In this document: one piece after another, positions 3,963 through 26,702 of the stretch | Position numbering within the stretch: position 1 is the first letter of the stretch | Layout: every line of letters begins with the position of its first letter | Virus record (IMG/VR): IMGVR_UViG_2660238061_000004 | Reading direction: 5' to 3' (one strand) | DNA from: a virus | Lineage: Duplodnaviria; Heunggongvirae; Uroviricota; Caudoviricetes | Length of the DNA: 26,702 nucleotides | Notes under the pieces: generated by a model | Seen by the model: the letters and a program-made list of their open reading frames with translations, nothing else | Told to the model about the DNA's origin: nothing | Databases searched by the model: none | Program-made: the position numbers and the translations under genes

Positions 3963-5277
3963 TATCCTTGTCGGTGATAGAGCCGCCGATACCGATGATG
4001 TCGGACAGGTTGCGCAGGTCGTTCAGCGCGGCATGCTGCGGCATACCGATGTCGCGCACGGCAGTCGCCAGGGCGGTGGCCACGTTGCTGGCCATTGTCG
4101 CCCGGTCAGTGTCCGACATCTCCCAGAGCTTGTTGAACTCGAAGGTGAAGTCTTCCGGCAGGGGCTGTCCGAACAGGGAGCGCCAGGAGATATCCAGCAG
4201 CCAGCGGATGTGTCGGCGCAGGCGGCGCTCCTGCAGCGAGTTAACGCGGCTGTAGTAGTTCTCCAGATCCCCGTCGCCGGTGCTGAATCCGGATGGTGAC
4301 TGCCCGAACAGGCGCACCAGCGGGATCCCAGTTGCGCCGGATACCTGCTCAGCAAAGCGCAGGATGACATCAGCGATCCCGGCGAACGAGTAACTGTGGG
4401 TCTGGAACTCGTCCGACTTATCCATGATGGTCATGCCTTCTATGGTCTGGAACTCACGGATCATGTCCATGTGCTTCATCAGACCATCTTCCAGCGTGCC
4501 GCCAGTGGCCAGAATCTTACGCAATCCGTCAATGCTGTAGGTACGCAGGTGCGCCTTGTGAATCAGCTGTGTAGTGCCGACGGTTGCGGTATCGAACGCC
4601 TGAATGCGCTCGTAGATACGCTCGACTACCGACATTCCCCAGCCGTTCTCGGTCTGCGCCTGCTGGAATGGCAGTGTGTCACCTTCCATGCGGATAATGC
4701 GGCTGTGGTGAATCTTCCACGGGGGGATCCCCTGCTGGTTGGTCACCACCTTGTAGTACTTCGGCTTGCCGAACTCCGGGCCGTAATCGGTCACCAGGTC
4801 GTAATAGCTCGGGGTTACCTGCCAGCGGTCGAGGCACATCACCCCCTTGAACTGACCCTCTTTGATGCGGTCGAGCTTCAGCGGAGTGGACATGTCCTGC
4901 CCTTCCAGCAGCACCACCAGCAGCGCGCCGCCGTACAGCCGGGACCACTTCAGGGTGTCGTTCAGTCCGTCCCAGATGGCAATGTCATCCCAGAACATCT
5001 CAAATTTACCCTTCTGTCCGGGCTCGAGCTTGGAACTGATGTTTATGCCCTTGCGGGTCATATCATCGGCCATAGCGTCTACACCGGCGCCCACCAAAAA
5101 CGATGAACGATACGCAAATTCCAGCTGTACGCGGTTACGCGAGATATAGCCAGGCTGATAGCTCCCACCGCTCTGGATGTTGGATGTATAGCCGCCGAGC
5201 TTAGCCGCGAAGTTGTTGTACCCGTCACCAGTCCGGACGGGCTTTTGTGCGCCGCTCTGGCGTTTCTTTCGGGACAT
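3799..5277 (-). CDS. phage portal protein
   Basis: 492-aa ORF directly after terminase large; ATG 5275..5277 with GAGGGG upstream; acidic C-terminal tail. The 3' end overlaps the next gene by about 160 nt, so the true stop may be earlier. Confidence 0.75.
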   Translation of the reverse strand: MSRKKRQSGAQKPVRTGDGYNNFAAKLGGYTSNIQSGGSYQPGYISRNRVQLEFAYRSSFLVGAGVDAMADDMTRKGINISSKLEPGQKGKFEMFWDDIAIWDGLNDTLKWSRLYGGALLVVLLEGQDMSTPLKLDRIKEGQFKGVMCLDRWQVTPSYYDLVTDYGPEFGKPKYYKVVTNQQGIPPWKIHHSRIIRMEGDTLPFQQAQTENGWGMSVVERIYERIQAFDTATVGTTQLIHKAHLRTYSIDGLRKILATGGTLEDGLMKHMDMIREFQTIEGMTIMDKSDEFQTHSYSFAGIADVILRFAEQVSGATGIPLVRLFGQSPSGFSTGDGDLENYYSRVNSLQERRLRRHIRWLLDISWRSLFGQPLPEDFTFEFNKLWEMSDTDRATMASNVATALATAVRDIGMPQHAALNDLRNLSDIIGIGGSITDKDIEDAKAEWEEAESETEPPPQIGAPVSEKSTGDSASVRRDSNWLLRWFGSERRAG

Positions 5278-7374: not shown

Positions 7375-7635
7375 ATGTCAGATGTAGAAAAAAGAATTGC
7401 CCATCTTGAGGATTTGGTTGAAGAGTTACAGTTACACAGCCACGCTTCTCGTGTTGCTATTGCTGTATTATCAACGGCTTTAAACGGAGTTGTGGGGAAA
7501 GAAACTCACCTCGGAGATGTTTATTTAGAAGGGGTTTCTAAGGCCGACCCCATCGAATTCGACATTCCCGCTAAAGATGGATACCTAGAAAAATTAAACG
7601 AGAGAGTCGCTGCTCTACTAGGCAGAGCACAATAA
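7375..7635 (+). CDS. small coiled-coil protein, AT-rich moron in the lambda bor position
   Basis: ATG 7375 with AAAGGAAC upstream; 86 aa (MSDVEKRIAHLEDLVEELQ...) with a hydrophobic stretch VAIAVLSTALNGVV; opposite strand to the flanking late genes; not Bor-like (no lipoprotein signal). Confidence 0.5.
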   Translation: MSDVEKRIAHLEDLVEELQLHSHASRVAIAVLSTALNGVVGKETHLGDVYLEGVSKADPIEFDIPAKDGYLEKLNERVAALLGRAQ

Positions 7636-7671
7636 GCATTTTTCAAAATCATTTTTCTTAAGCCTTTTACG

Positions 7672-7689
7672 CATCCCCTCCGGGGGATG
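7672..7689 (+). other. GC-rich hairpin after the 7375 gene, no T-run
   Basis: catcccc-tccg-ggggatg perfect 7-bp stem. Confidence 0.25.
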
Positions 7690-7726
7690 TAGCCATAAAG
7701 ATGAGTTTGTCCATAGCGTTGACACT

Positions 7727-7750
7727 AAAAAACCGCCCGTAGGCGGTTTG
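7727..7750 (-). terminator. rho-independent terminator for minus-strand (late) transcripts
   Basis: aaccgcc-cgta-ggcggtt perfect stem preceded by an A-run on plus, which is a T-run on the minus strand. Confidence 0.45.
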
Positions 7751-8134
7751 TAGGTGAAAGGAAGGCCAAGCTAATGCGAATTACTACAAGGTTCAGTTAT
7801 CCCTAATGACGCGACGGACATTTCGGGGCCAAACCAAGCAGCGTCACCTGAGCCCCTTGGCTTTTCATGAATTGACCCAACAGCGTGACCTGAAAGGCGG
7901 GAGACTCCAACGTCCCAGACGCGGGTGGTAAAAATCTCAAGATGGTCATCCATCTCGGAATTCTCCCTTCGCACTATCCTCTCGATTTCTGTTACCCCTG
8001 GCTCAGGAACCCTGACGTCACGATCAACGGTTGCTTAAGGGGAAGTCCAAAAACTGGGTCAAAAAGACCTCCTTGAACTTTCCGTGGGTTAACATTTTTT
8101 ATGATAGCGAAACGGGTAACTTTCGCAAATATTG

Positions 8135-13117: not shown

Positions 13118-13478
13118 ATTAGCAGTGTTATATTAAGCGGCAATTTCTTTCTGCCGGCACAATCCCGAGAGATTCGCCCTCTGTATCGCATCATCAATGA
13201 GCACCTGTATGACCATGAGGCAAAGCGTTATCCAACTTGCATTCATCTTTTTCAATCAGCAAAGGAGTGGTTAGTGCTGTGAGTGGGCTTTGTTCACTTC
13301 ATGGTAGATAAATCAGCTATGGATAAGTGATAAGAGGTGAAATCAATCCGAATTAACAACCTGAAGCACATTAATCGGAACACAGATATTAAAATCCTAA
13401 AGTCTAGTAACAAATAGCCGATATGAGATATTGCTTATCAGTTTAAAAATCATCTATTGAAAAAATGGGGGGGAGGCG

Positions 13479-14042
13479 TTGAAGCGAGTAGAGCGCGATT
13501 TTATCTGTCTGTTTAATTGTGTGTGGTATCAAGATTTCCCTGTGTTCAAAGGTGAATATATCAACCGTTCCAACTGGACCATTCATGTTGGCCTGGTCAT
13601 GCGCGAGTGTGCAAAGTTAATGGGCGCAAGAACATTTTTTGAACAAGGCGGGCGTACCGATGCGGTCCTACAATATCCAGACAATCAAATTTTAACCTAT
13701 GTTGAGTGGGAGTATAATCAGGCAGACAGAGATAGCGTTAACGAGTTAGACAAACTGCTTGAAAAAAACGACAAGTGCTATTTCTCCACATTCATCTCAT
13801 ATTGTCAGCATGAAAACATCAATATTGTTATTGAAAAAGCAAGTAGAATATGGAGTGAAGCAAGCAGGCCTTTGATTTTTTTTCTTATCACCTATGAGCC
13901 TCAAACGAAAAAACGCCGCCATTTTTTAGAACTCAGAACTTATTTTTTCTCAAACGGCAAAAGAAAACTAGTTCGCAAACAACCTGCGCTTCCATGGGAT
14001 ATTGAGCAACGAAAATACAATGTCGAAGAAGATGCAGGATAG
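13479..14042 (+). CDS. orphan 187-aa protein, AT-rich, function unknown
   Basis: TTG start with strong GGGGGGAGG SD 3-4 nt upstream; roughly 40 percent GC by eye versus a GC-richer backbone; opposite strand to the surrounding phage genes. Confidence 0.5.
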   Translation: MKRVERDFICLFNCVWYQDFPVFKGEYINRSNWTIHVGLVMRECAKLMGARTFFEQGGRTDAVLQYPDNQILTYVEWEYNQADRDSVNELDKLLEKNDKCYFSTFISYCQHENINIVIEKASRIWSEASRPLIFFLITYEPQTKKRRHFLELRTYFFSNGKRKLVRKQPALPWDIEQRKYNVEEDAG

Positions 14043-14081
14043 AAGAGACATAAGGTTTTCACGACAGTCTCGTTCCGAGCC

Positions 14082-14463
14082 CTAACTAAAATATTCTGTT
14101 CGGAGCAACCAAATAGCTCTGGCTTTGCTGTGACCATGTTCGCGGTACCAACGCCTCTCTAGGTCCGCTTCTCGCTCATGGTGGACCAAAATCAAATCTA
14201 AAATGACGTGGCTAAGCGGGAGTACATAGTGAATGACAGGATGCTCCGGGCAGCACCATACTAATTCAGTTCCCGTCAGAGGTAGGCGTTGCTTCATGAT
14301 GGGATGAGCGCTCCCTCCAGACAATCCATGCGACAGCCGCCTCCCATGATATATATCCATTACCGCCATTTTTCGCTCTGCGGAGATTAACTGCATCACC
14401 AAACCTTTCAATGATGAATTTTTCAAATTCTATGCGTTTTTCTTCGTCGATTGTTGAATCCAT
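14082..14463 (-). CDS. pair of overlapping small ORFs (65 aa and about 71 aa) or one frameshifted gene
   Basis: Upstream frame MDSTIDEEKRIEFEKFIIERFGDAV... ends at 14266; second frame has a GGAGGGAG-ATG start near 14303 and runs to 14082 (MKQRLPLTGTELVWCCPEHPVIHYV...). Confidence 0.35.
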
Positions 14464-14530
14464 ACCTTCCCCAGAAGAGTCCTACGAATCGCTCTTATTG
14501 CATAAAAAATAGCATATACAATAGAGAGTG

Positions 14531-14550
14531 AAAAACCGACGTAGCGGGTT
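14531..14550 (-). repeat. degenerate second copy of the 13095 hairpin element
   Basis: aaaaaccgacgtagcgggtt versus aaaacccgccgtagcgggtt at 13097..13115; same orientation; stem is imperfect in this copy. Confidence 0.35.
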
Positions 14551-14742
14551 AACTTTATGTTACTCATGAGTCTTGTCTCGCTGCGACTTAAAAGCGGAAC
14601 ATTCTCGCGCAAGTTGCGTTGCTAAAGCTACGGGGTTGAATGGCTCTCCATGCCCATTTAAGAAGGCATGCGGTGTGTAGTTGAACGTTATTTAAAACAC
14701 AGATAGAATCAAGAAAAATCCTAAATAAATGGAATATTGTTT

Positions 14743-15123
14743 ATGGCTAAGAAAATCGCATTACTGGGCTTTTCTGCTCTTTTTGTTGCAAGTGTTGCTT
14801 TTGCTGAAACGACAAGTAACTGGGTTGAGGTTACTACAGCTGATGATGGCATTTTTTCAGCAAAAAAAGGCACATTTAGAAATGTAAAAGGTGATTCATC
14901 TGCCTTGTTCATGTATCAAACAAAAAATAAAAAAGTAGAGTACTACAAAGTTAGTATTAAAGATGCCGACTGTGATAGTGGATATGGGGAGATAAGATTC
15001 TTCTATATGGATGGGAAATTAGCTTTCAAAGGTGATTATGTTGCTGATGGGAACAGTGTTGGCGCAGGTATTGGTGATTTTATGTGTGGAGTCAGAATTG
15101 GACTTAACACACAAAAAAGTTAA
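14743..15123 (+). CDS. small secreted/periplasmic protein, function unknown
   Basis: MAKKIALLGFSALFVASVAFA signal peptide (AFA-E cleavage motif), about 105-aa mature domain with two Cys; AT-rich; no strong SD. Confidence 0.55.
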   Translation: MAKKIALLGFSALFVASVAFAETTSNWVEVTTADDGIFSAKKGTFRNVKGDSSALFMYQTKNKKVEYYKVSIKDADCDSGYGEIRFFYMDGKLAFKGDYVADGNSVGAGIGDFMCGVRIGLNTQKS

Positions 15124-15163
15124 ATGAGGGGCATTTGTTAAAAAACAATAGCCCCACATTAGA

Positions 15164-15365
15164 TCAATATTGGCTCCGGCATTTCTGGATAAAAGCTTCT
15201 ATGCTACGGCGCTCATAGCGAACAATCTTAGCGCTGAACTTTACACGGGGCCAATGTAGACCGGTGTCGGTGTTCTGTATTCCATTTACATAATGTTTTT
15301 TGCGTAATTCCCAGCTTCTGGCATACCTCGCCCGGAGTGAGGAGATCATCAGGTTGCTCAGTCAT
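15164..15365 (-). pseudogene. AlpA-family HTH regulator remnant, frameshifted
   Basis: ATG 15363..15365 with GAGG upstream gives MTEQPDDLLTPGEVCQKLGITQKTLCKW...; the track ORF 15164..15349 in another frame continues with GLHWPRVKFSAKIVRYERRSIEAFIQK, which fits the C-terminal half of an AlpA-type protein. Confidence 0.4.
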
Positions 15366-15537
15366 GTTATGCCTCGCTGTTATCTGGGGTGATGATTAGC
15401 AGCTTCCAGATGGCTGAGACATACATAGCCTGATGTTTCGCATCGACTAGGGCATTATGCATGTCACCTTCAAACGGCATGTCCCGAGTTCTCCCTTTTC
15501 GCCGCTTTCGCGTCGCATATTCTCCAAACGGTATTTA

Positions 15538-16095
15538 TCAATCATTACTGTTATCCTCGCAGTAGTAGTGCCGTCCCTCTGGGTCAGTAGATACATGTCC
15601 GCAGATATCGCATTCAATTCCAGGAAGCACCGATTCTGACTGCGCTTTGATATGCAGTCGCGGTTCACCGTCTTTCGGCTCTGGCCACTGGCGGTTTTTG
15701 TTAACCGCCAGCTTTTCTACCATCGCCAGGGTAATCTGCTTATCACTGATACCGGCACGACGTTGCGCATCCCATAACAGGAATTGCATGTCAGCCCATT
15801 CGCTCATCTCGTCTGGTTCCGCAGCAGCCTCGATAGCTTCTTTGGAAAGGTGCTTCAGCGGACCAACTGGACCGACATCGCCGAATGTTTCATCTGACCA
15901 TGCTGCATGTTCACAGCGTACCTGCTCACGGGCTATCGACTCCAGAACCCCATCAATCACCTTCACTGCATCAGCCATTGCGTAGCCGAGATTACCGCCG
16001 TCGCTTTGTGCTGCTGCTTTGCTGAGTATTTCGCGTATCTGGTGCAAGCGATCAAGTGATACAGGACCGTGCGCCGGGTGGTTGTTAGTTGTCAT
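15538..16095 (-). CDS. phage protein with MazG-like NTP pyrophosphohydrolase-type region (DUF550-like) and C-terminal Cys cluster
   Basis: 185 aa; segment EMSEWADMQFLLWDAQRRAGISDKQITLAMVEKLAVNKNRQW resembles MazG/DUF550 proteins from memory; CDICGH...YYCEDN at the C-terminus. Confidence 0.45.
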   Translation of the reverse strand: MTTNNHPAHGPVSLDRLHQIREILSKAAAQSDGGNLGYAMADAVKVIDGVLESIAREQVRCEHAAWSDETFGDVGPVGPLKHLSKEAIEAAAEPDEMSEWADMQFLLWDAQRRAGISDKQITLAMVEKLAVNKNRQWPEPKDGEPRLHIKAQSESVLPGIECDICGHVSTDPEGRHYYCEDNSND

Positions 16096-16098
16096 GGG

Positions 16099-25314: not shown

Positions 25315-25512
25315 ATGGATGATATTTTGGTAACGTCAGACCTGACCAGTCGCTACAAAATTTCACGCAAAACCCTTTGGTCATGGCAAAGTGCAGACAC
25401 AATGCCTCGGGGCTTCGTATGCCCGTTCCCACCCCCTGACTGGCCCGGCAACCCTAACCGCTGGCGCTCTGAGTCAATCAAAGAGTGGGAGGATAAAAAG
25501 AAGATAAATTAA
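25315..25512 (+). CDS. AlpA-family DNA-binding protein (excisionase-like regulator)
   Basis: 65 aa from the internal ATG with GGAGAGAG SD; [20 protein letters not shown]...FPPP...[10 protein letters not shown] fits the AlpA pattern; convergent with the integrase. Confidence 0.6.
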
Positions 25513-26702
25513 CTGAAGGGCTCTCCGATGATCTCTTCAAGATGGCTCTGCCAAACGCGGAGCCAGTGTTTCTGATCATCGATATAGTCATGAAGGTTGT
25601 AATGCGCCATAACCCCCACCATCTGATGCCCGAGCAGCTTTTCAATTACGTGCGGCGGGCAACCTAACTCAGAGAGATTTGTGGCTATCGTCCGCCTCAT
25701 ATCATGAAGCGACCACTCTGCCATACCTGTTCCATTCCAAATAGAACGGGCGTAATTGGATGCCACAGGTGAATGAACGGGCGAATCTTTGATCCCGCCA
25801 TCAATTTTACGTTGTGAAGTCACCAGGTGATTGGTGTTTATTTTCTTGAGGTGATTTCTGACCAGGTTAACGGCGGCGTCTGAGAGTCCCCTTCTAATAT
25901 GTACCCGAGTTTTATAACTGCCCGCAGGCACGACCCACTCATTATCATCCAATCGAAACCATGATCTCTCACTAAGTCGAATCTCAGCCGTACGGCATCC
26001 GGTAAGCATAATAAATTTCACCAGGAAAACGGACTCTATCGACATATGGCTTTTCAACCACTGATAGATTTTGCGCAGATCGTCATCGTCCATCCTGCGA
26101 GTTCTCTTTTTAGGCTTTTGCCCGACATCAGATGGCAGTAATCCCTCGAGTGGGTTTGAGGCGATCACACTTCTGTTAACGCAGAACCTAAAGGCCCGTT
26201 TGCACAGCGAAAGCATGTAATGAGCCATCACCCTGCTTTCTATAGAATCGAAGACGTTGATCCAGTGCATTTTCGCTGTGTTATCGACTTTGACATTCTT
26301 CATCGGTTCGGCGATATGTTTCTCAAACACCTGGCGATAGTAATCGACTTTAACTAGCCCGTTAGCGATACAGTGCCTTTCAATCCAGTAATTGAACGCT
26401 TCGGCAACGGACATCGCTTCCTGTCGGGTCTGCTTATCCAGCTTCACCTGCTCTCGCGGATCCAGTCCCTCAGTTAACCAGTTTCTGAATTGTTGGCGAC
26501 GCTCTCTTGCCTGGGTGATACTCATTGCAGGATAATCACCAACATTGAGTTTTACCGCTTTACCGGCCCAGCGATACCGATAGAAAAATGATATTTTTCC
26601 GGCCTGGCTGATTCTGGCGTTGAGCCCGTGCGAATCAGAAATAATCTCGATATCATCTCTTTTCTTGCCGAGCGCCTTCCTGAGCTTTGTGTCGGTGATC
26701 AT
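25509..26702 (-). CDS. int: tyrosine integrase, P4-like
   Basis: 397 aa; C-terminal catalytic region with ...HDMRRT...LLGH...AHY...; ATG falls exactly on the last three bases of the window. Confidence 0.9.

Follow-up and report, generated by a model that had tools for sequence, protein, structure and literature searches.

Two short open reading frames (ORFs) overlap on the minus strand at positions 15164-15365 of a 26,702-nucleotide stretch of phage DNA, which is called the window here and to which all coordinates refer unless a locus is named. Are they the halves of one broken gene and, if so, which gene was it, how did it come to lie there, and does it still do anything? The first-pass annotation, made from the letters alone, took them for the remnant of a frameshifted AlpA-like regulator at the right edge of an island derived from another integrative element or from a recombination between prophages.

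The Split Gene and Its Repair

Two gene halves in different frames are indeed present at exactly this place. The ORF at 15228-15365 (minus strand, 45 aa, MTEQPDDLLTPGEVCQKLGITQKTLCKWNTEHRHRSTLAPCKVQR) starts with MTEQPDDLLTPGEVCQKLGITQKTLCKWN, a typical helix-turn-helix (HTH), as had been proposed for the N-terminal half; its 41 native residues, which hold the HTH, are followed by four wrong residues and a stop. The ORF at 15164-15349 (minus strand, 61 aa) is read in the +1 frame, and its last 26 residues, VKFSAKIVRYERRSIEAFIQKCRSQY, resemble in sequence the wing and final helix that small excisionase-type proteins have. This C-terminal part (VKFSAK...CRSQY) is encoded by 15164-15243 on the minus strand, and in tblastn residues 41-67 of L5_HTH align on 15244-15164. 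The true ends of the gene, 202 nt long in its present state, are the ATG at 15365 and the stop at 15164-15166.

The frames are separated by a single inserted base at 15246, a G on the coding (minus) strand and a C on the plus strand, at position 120 of the gene. DNA alignments place it directly after a run of four Cs, with GGCCCC-G-TGTAAAG in the window versus GGCCCC-TGTAAAA in the intact relatives. The conceptual frame repair suggested earlier was carried out: deletion of the one base at 15246 restores a 66-aa protein, MTEQPDDLLTPGEVCQKLGITQKTLCKWNTEHRHRSTLAPVKFSAKIVRYERRSIEAFIQKCRSQY. Compared with the closest Citrobacter copy of the gene (L033-type), the repaired version is identical at 62 of 66 amino acids and 190 of 201 nucleotides, and a search of 5.8 billion proteins matched it to the intact protein P0001 at 92% identity (E 1.9e-35). 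Joining the frames after KW, or with an added R to give 67 aa, was also tried and was rejected by the alignment with intact genes, which places the shift 13 codons beyond KW, after LAP. The N-terminal 41 residues and the ribosome-binding site of the remnant are unchanged, and the only product possible from the window allele is a 45-aa HTH peptide that lacks the wing and the C-terminal helix. PGAP/RefSeq leaves 15164-15365 without annotation; GenBank names the C-terminal frame a hypothetical protein (P0014).

Family Membership and Predicted Fold

The AlpA label has to be given up. Searches with PF05930 (Phage_AlpA) gave nothing at E ≤ 10 for the two halves and the first, 67-aa repair, and nothing at E ≤ 1 for the correct 66-aa repair and P0001; the matches obtained are to HTH_17 and phrog_4745. 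The repaired protein scores 27.1 bits against all 51 positions (1-51) of the Pfam HTH_17 profile (PF12728; E 5e-6), a marginal pass of the gathering cut-off of 27 bits, and P0001 scores 27.9 bits; the unrepaired halves both stay below the cut-off, one with 15.9 bits and the other with no match. Residues 1-65 of the repaired protein match phrog_4745 ('DNA binding protein') with 79 bits (E 3.3e-22), and the excisionase PHROGs 66 and 1553 match it weakly. With TIGR01764 'excise' of NCBIfam the repaired protein reaches 14.1 bits and P0001 16.4 bits, in the N-terminal helix only and under the cut-off of 28.8 bits. The family is small; among 1.8 billion representatives it accounts for 15 clusters at 50% identity (E ≤ 1e-10). 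Megablast against the phage database found nothing for the remnant itself, and its sole tblastn match there is Serratia phage OS31. PADLOC, run on the repaired protein and the neighbouring cargo genes, returned nothing except a weak match to the mad1 HTH.

AlpA proteins (PF05930; P4 Vis/AlpA, CP4-57 AlpA) are small winged-HTH proteins encoded beside the integrases of their elements, where they act as excisionases or regulators. The remnant belongs to the same broad class; in the one island, L029, where true PF05930 genes adjoin a distant relative of the remnant, they are distinct from that relative.

In an AF2 model (pLDDT 74) the intact family has helices at residues 11-18, 22-31, and 52-65 and a beta strand at 48-51, and the best superpositions of the model in the PDB are on BldC, the Xis of mycobacteriophage Pukovnik, and RdfS (TM 0.61-0.78). 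The model is similar in size to Pukovnik Xis (4J2N), RdfS (8DGL), and the GIsul2 excisionase (8C3T), which are MerR-like excisionases, and to BldC (6AMK), and superposes on these four with an rmsd of 1.6-2.7 Å, but sequence identity is merely 16-26%; a sequence search of the PDB returned only a marginal match to BldC (E 0.07). With moderate confidence, the intact family can be considered to have a small winged-helix (MerR-like) DNA-binding fold. As BldC regulates development and is no excisionase, the fold alone leaves the function unfixed.

Intact Relatives and Their Integrase

Intact, 201-nt copies of the gene, with 72-77% DNA identity to the remnant, are present in about 160 E. coli genomes, and Citrobacter, Shimwellia, and Kluyvera have intact copies that are closer still. 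Intact 66-aa HTH regulators (P0001; WP_024154042.1; WP_001291429.1) share 80-94% of their amino acids with the repaired remnant. In the closely related loci examined the intact gene is the last of an early-left operon and is convergent with the gene of a 465-aa tyrosine integrase, with a 4-bp overlap or with a single 126-aa gene between the two. The integrase gene in turn adjoins yfhL, a 4Fe-4S ferredoxin gene, and acpS. The usual order is thus dATP/dGTP pyrophosphohydrolase (DUF550), Rv2179c-like 3'-5' exoribonuclease, HTH gene, sometimes a moron, and integrase; the 126-aa gene is absent from most integrase-linked loci. Such loci come from E. coli (L003, L004), Citrobacter (L005-L010, L033, L035, L036), six other species (L011-L016), and Klebsiella and Enterobacter-type hosts (L026-L028, L031-L032). 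Adjacency to the 465-aa integrase at the att-site end holds for more than 20 intact loci, with one exception (L017/L029). The intact yfhL-site copies of Citrobacter, E. coli, and Klebsiella share their length and ribosome-binding site with the remnant, but they are in one frame and always adjoin the 465-aa integrase, whereas the window copy has the additional G and no integrase.

From the convergent arrangement of the intact gene with the 465-aa integrase at yfhL/acpS we infer that the 66-aa family serves this integrase as its putative excisionase (recombination directionality factor). The same module, exoribonuclease, HTH gene, and convergent 465-aa tyrosine integrase, is found in Serratia phage vB_SspS_OS31, a mitomycin-induced phage in which the authors, by prediction, name the gene a putative excisionase, and for which they report insertion into a 4Fe-4S ferredoxin gene of the yfhL type (PMC7556043). 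Its product PhiOS31_p02 (QNO00970.1), a small HTH_17 (pfam12728) protein, is 50% identical to the repaired remnant over 91% of the length of the latter. The OS31 gene is intact and lies beside the integrase at the prophage end, while the window copy is frameshifted, lies in mid-prophage, and has 15 integrase codons beside it.

The exception is P0007 (70 aa, 72% identical), a more distant relative from a P4-like satellite island at yicC (L029; also L017). It is not located beside a 465-aa integrase, and its context is unlike that of all other relatives. Since P0007 is found in an island beside AlpA, the family may also serve as a transcription regulator. As to its other contents, the L029 island (4533-5213 and 7542-7754 of that locus) carries an Arm-DNA-bind_3 integrase and a DUF927 primase, and P0007 is divergent from the true PF05930 AlpA gene.

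The Foreign Block

The remnant is part of an 894-bp block (14593-15486) shared with the prophages of the yfhL/acpS site. The block is 93.5% identical to the integrase end of Citrobacter prophages (L033-L036), 85% to L005, and 81% to L013 from Kluyvera, and both its breakpoints agree within 2 bp against every comparator. With 15 integrase codons still attached, it bears out the earlier suggestion of recombination between prophages. Some 120 bp separate the remnant from the right-hand breakpoint, and a low-G+C stretch has its right end here too; the right-edge position noted earlier was thus correct.

At its right end the block holds, on the minus strand at 15367-15486, the last 39 codons and the stop of an Rv2179c-like exoribonuclease gene, annotated by PGAP as a pseudogene. 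The fragment covers positions 153-177 of the 177 of PF16473 (28.6 bits) and in tblastn is 84% identical to residues 153-189 of an intact 190-aa protein; the upstream 150 or so codons are gone. In L035, a Citrobacter-type donor, the full exoribonuclease gene (4624-5196 of that locus) is itself split into 120-aa and 67-aa ORFs, so the exoribonuclease is decaying in its native position too. At the left end, on the plus strand at 14592-14639, are the last 15 codons of the donor 465-aa integrase, KRNILAQVALLKLRG, with their stop and with an in-frame stop preceding them; the integrase of L005 ends in ERSILAQVALLRRRG, likewise followed by the stop. Apart from this, tblastn of the 465-aa integrase across the window gave only a 22% match to the resident integrase.

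Between the two ends, and convergent with the remnant, lies an intact gene for a secreted-type protein of 126 aa (14743-15123, plus strand), a moron that runs opposite to the early-right operon holding it. The protein has a signal-peptide-like N-terminus and is 82% identical to the product of the L005 gene and 95% to P0163 of C. freundii; its gene is 100% identical in the copies of lambdoid prophages L019, L020, and L024. It belongs to an uncharacterised family confined to Enterobacteriaceae (prophages), with no match in Pfam, NCBIfam, PHROG, or PADLOC. The gene is preceded by a promoter-like site at 14681-14709 (plus strand, TTGAAC-17-TAGAAT), which is a consensus match only. A hairpin at 15123-15160, between the convergent HTH and 126-aa genes, has a predicted folding energy of -18.2 kcal/mol (z -3.6), is also present in the Citrobacter donor, and is a possible bidirectional terminator; a consensus terminator scan called none between these genes, and Rfam found no RNA family in the whole window. 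A search around the block for repeats of the att or junction type yielded only short, chance-like matches, and a decamer, CCGTTTG(G/A)AG, occurs near, not at, the right breakpoint.

The Host Prophage and Its Cargo Slot

The window corresponds to a prophage of three complete E. coli genomes (PSJ-22, ES7, and NCTC11023), with 99.8-99.9% identity over the stretches compared. According to the RefSeq annotation of PSJ-22 it is a lambdoid prophage adjoining kch, and the order of its genes is as follows: tail and head genes, terminase, lysis genes, antiterminator Q, nin genes of the RusA/NinB type, DinI and a few hypotheticals, the DUF550 protein, DUF977, a replication protein, YdaT, regulators of the cro/cI type, RecE/RecT, DUF4060, and a tyrosine integrase. 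A P4-like island, as the first-pass annotation implied, does not fit a host of this kind, with terminase, lysis, Q, nin, and replication genes, cI/cro-type regulators, RecE/RecT, Xis, and Int. The minus strand is the direction of the early-right operon, from replication through nin to Q, and 15164-15365 sits inside that operon, within a region at about 12.5-15.5 kb of the window in which the G+C content falls to 0.40-0.43.

The prophage has excision genes of its own. The resident tyrosine integrase (25509-26702, minus strand, 397 aa) has Arm-DNA-bind_3 and Phage_integrase domains and is unrelated to the donor-type 465-aa integrase (22% identity in tblastn). Convergent with it, with a 4-bp overlap, is the intact gene of the resident excisionase (25315-25512, plus strand, 65 aa), which matches phrog_1553 'excisionase' over its full length (E 7e-34). 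In the PGAP/RefSeq record of PSJ-22 this ORF is missing, and a gap stands between DUF4060 and the integrase. The resident excisionase resembles the intact relatives of the remnant in size, class, and convergent arrangement with an integrase, including the 4-bp overlap; unlike the remnant, it is intact and paired with a different integrase, the 397-aa Arm-DNA-bind_3 enzyme, and it shares only 22% identity with the repaired remnant. The remnant is therefore a second, unrelated, and redundant excisionase-type gene in this prophage, without a partner. A second, decayed gene far from the integrase had been proposed, and the distance to the integrase and excisionase of the prophage itself is indeed about 10 kb.

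The slot that the block occupies, flanked by the replication genes and DinI/nin, holds variable cargo. In L018, a related E. coli prophage with the nearest backbone that lacks the block, quite different genes are present between DUF550 and DinI, and the slot is therefore variable. The left flank (13400-14600) was found in 3 of 5426 complete E. coli genomes, always with the block; among the same 5426 there is no 'empty' version of exactly this slot. This flank includes an ORF of 187 aa at 13479-14042 (plus strand, thus in the opposite orientation, with a G+C content of about 0.40) and one of 65 aa at 14266-14463 (minus strand), neither of which belongs to a family in Pfam or PADLOC. On the other side, the first 150 or so nucleotides (about 50 codons) of the DUF550 gene (15948-16096, minus strand) are 95-96% identical to DNA of Citrobacter L033-L036, where the counterpart is a gene of 280 or 281 aa that precedes the exonuclease; the remainder of the window gene is unrelated. 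A mosaic joint therefore lies inside the gene. As its start matches the donor, the whole order of DUF550, exonuclease, and excisionase is donor-like, with the middle replaced.

An origin in another integrative element, the other source envisaged by the first-pass annotation, thus applies to the 894-bp block and not to the element as a whole: the foreign piece is a small cargo-slot module, and so it is no evidence that the whole element derives from another.

Spread and Decay of the Frameshift

All three complete E. coli genomes share the additional G, and so do six further assemblies or metagenome contigs of independent origin (L019-L024); L021 and L023 were counted by their called 66-aa product, and the other copies with the G were aligned. 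The insertion recurs, along with the truncations, in at least eight independent assemblies besides the window. No integrase-linked copy among those aligned has it. Prophages whose replication modules are of three different kinds (those of the window, L019, and L024) have identical exonuclease truncations and the identical additional G, which indicates that the block was already broken when it was spreading. The remnant differs from intact genes in 11-15 synonymous and 4-5 non-synonymous codons; as the differences are mostly synonymous, the inactivation would be recent relative to the divergence of the lineages, and the decay of the remnant is very slight.

About 50 nt upstream of the insertion, a tract of six As on the coding strand (15296-15301, minus strand; T6 on the plus strand) varies in length among the copies (A5, A6, or A7; also L002). 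The window and L024 have A6, as do all intact genes. NCTC11023 has A7; its copy, with a match one base longer, had been suspected to be intact, and this was rejected, because the extra A in the tract comes on top of the same additional G and the gene is still broken. A5 is found in L019, L020, and L022 and, with the G present, restores a 66-aa ORF (P0010), for which at least 16 contigs have a gene call. In P0010 17 residues are scrambled, being read out of frame, among them 12 invariant positions of the family (T24, L25, C26, W28, N29, H32, R33, H34, R35, L38, A39, and P40), and the match to HTH_17 is confined to the C-terminal part (20 bits). Decay is thus both shared among the copies and still going on.

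Origin and Fate of the Locus

Very probably, then, 15164-15365 holds a copy, orphaned and without function, of the gene for the putative excisionase of yfhL-site prophages, carried in by recombination between prophages. The donors would be lambdoid prophages that insert at yfhL, beside acpS, by means of the 465-aa tyrosine integrase. Recombination between prophages would have copied an 894-bp piece of the integrase end, with the 3' end of the exoribonuclease gene, the HTH_17 gene, the moron, and the last 15 integrase codons, into the slot between replication and DinI/nin of a different lambdoid prophage. The HTH_17 gene would have had no job in the recipient, because its cognate integrase is missing, as are the att sites, and the insertion of a single G after the run of four Cs would end the protein past the HTH and before the wing and C-terminal helix. 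A 45-aa peptide without wing and C-terminal helix, with no cognate integrase or att sites, leads to the conclusion that the locus as it stands in all likelihood does nothing. The block probably owes its continued circulation to the intact 126-aa gene, with which the scraps of excisionase and exonuclease would travel as passengers.

The locus is an ordinary pseudogene, a product of lambdoid phage mosaicism, and marking it as a pseudogene of an HTH_17 excisionase-type gene is mainly a matter of annotation. At the same time it is a clean, datable example of module exchange among lambdoid phages, with sharp breakpoints within the exonuclease and integrase genes, and the block now circulates in at least three types of replication module, apparently riding with the intact moron. 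As the locus also shows, an additional excisionase-like gene does not by itself mark a prophage as carrying a second integrative element or as a composite island.

Alternative Explanations

Other readings of the locus are much less probable. A homopolymer error of sequencing or assembly in a gene that is truly intact and functional might be suspected, as the extra base follows a run of four Cs and the PacBio-era assembly of NCTC11023 has a further one-base difference in the A tract nearby. This is very improbable: the same G recurs across three complete genomes plus six short-read assemblies and metagenome contigs of independent origin, from different samples and prophage backbones, while every integrase-linked copy lacks it; since it is common to independent assemblies, it is not an error. 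Hardly any credit, and no more than to an error, can be given to a full-length protein made by programmed +1 ribosomal frameshifting or by transcriptional slippage at A6. A +1 shift right after CCG would yield the exact native LAP-VKF junction, the second frame is open from 15349, and an A tract lies upstream, but inspection of the sequence reveals, where the shift would occur, neither an in-frame stop nor a rare codon, nor a Shine-Dalgarno-like stimulator upstream, and the P-site tRNA would be unable to re-pair on CGU. A6 is shorter than the tracts known for efficient slippage of RNA polymerase, and slippage there would give only a scrambled product of the P0010 type. Furthermore, all intact and integrase-linked relatives have a single frame, and the length of the tract varies among copies, unlike that of a conserved recoding signal.

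Co-option is unlikely as well, if less so: the 45-aa HTH peptide or the 66-aa ORF of the A5 allele would have become a regulator of the 126-aa gene or a decoy against phages of the yfhL type, with the A tract as a switch. The first 41 residues and the ribosome-binding site are unchanged, decay is slight, the remnant travels with the block through several prophage backbones, and A5 brings back a full-length ORF in at least 16 contigs; lying within the early-right operon, the remnant is probably transcribed upon induction. Against this, the three alleles have three different products, so none is under visible selection, and A5 replaces 12 invariant residues and lowers the HTH_17 score to 20 bits. 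The gene accompanies the integrase and not the moron, as most integrase-linked loci lack the 126-aa gene, and the neighbouring scrap of exonuclease shows that the block simply holds debris. Somewhat less likely again is the version in which A5, A6, and A7 on the fixed background of the additional G act as a set, giving a 66-aa protein with a new 17-residue core, a 45-aa peptide, or nothing, and serving as moron regulator or decoy excisionase; a decoy excisionase, if it existed, would disturb the lysogeny of competing yfhL-site phages. That the two ORFs are chance open frames of no common origin has practically no chance of being right. At 45 and 61 aa they are short, and neither has a PGAP annotation, yet the repaired protein matches intact 66-aa proteins with an E value of 1.9e-35, and the DNA is collinear with theirs over the gene and its flanks.
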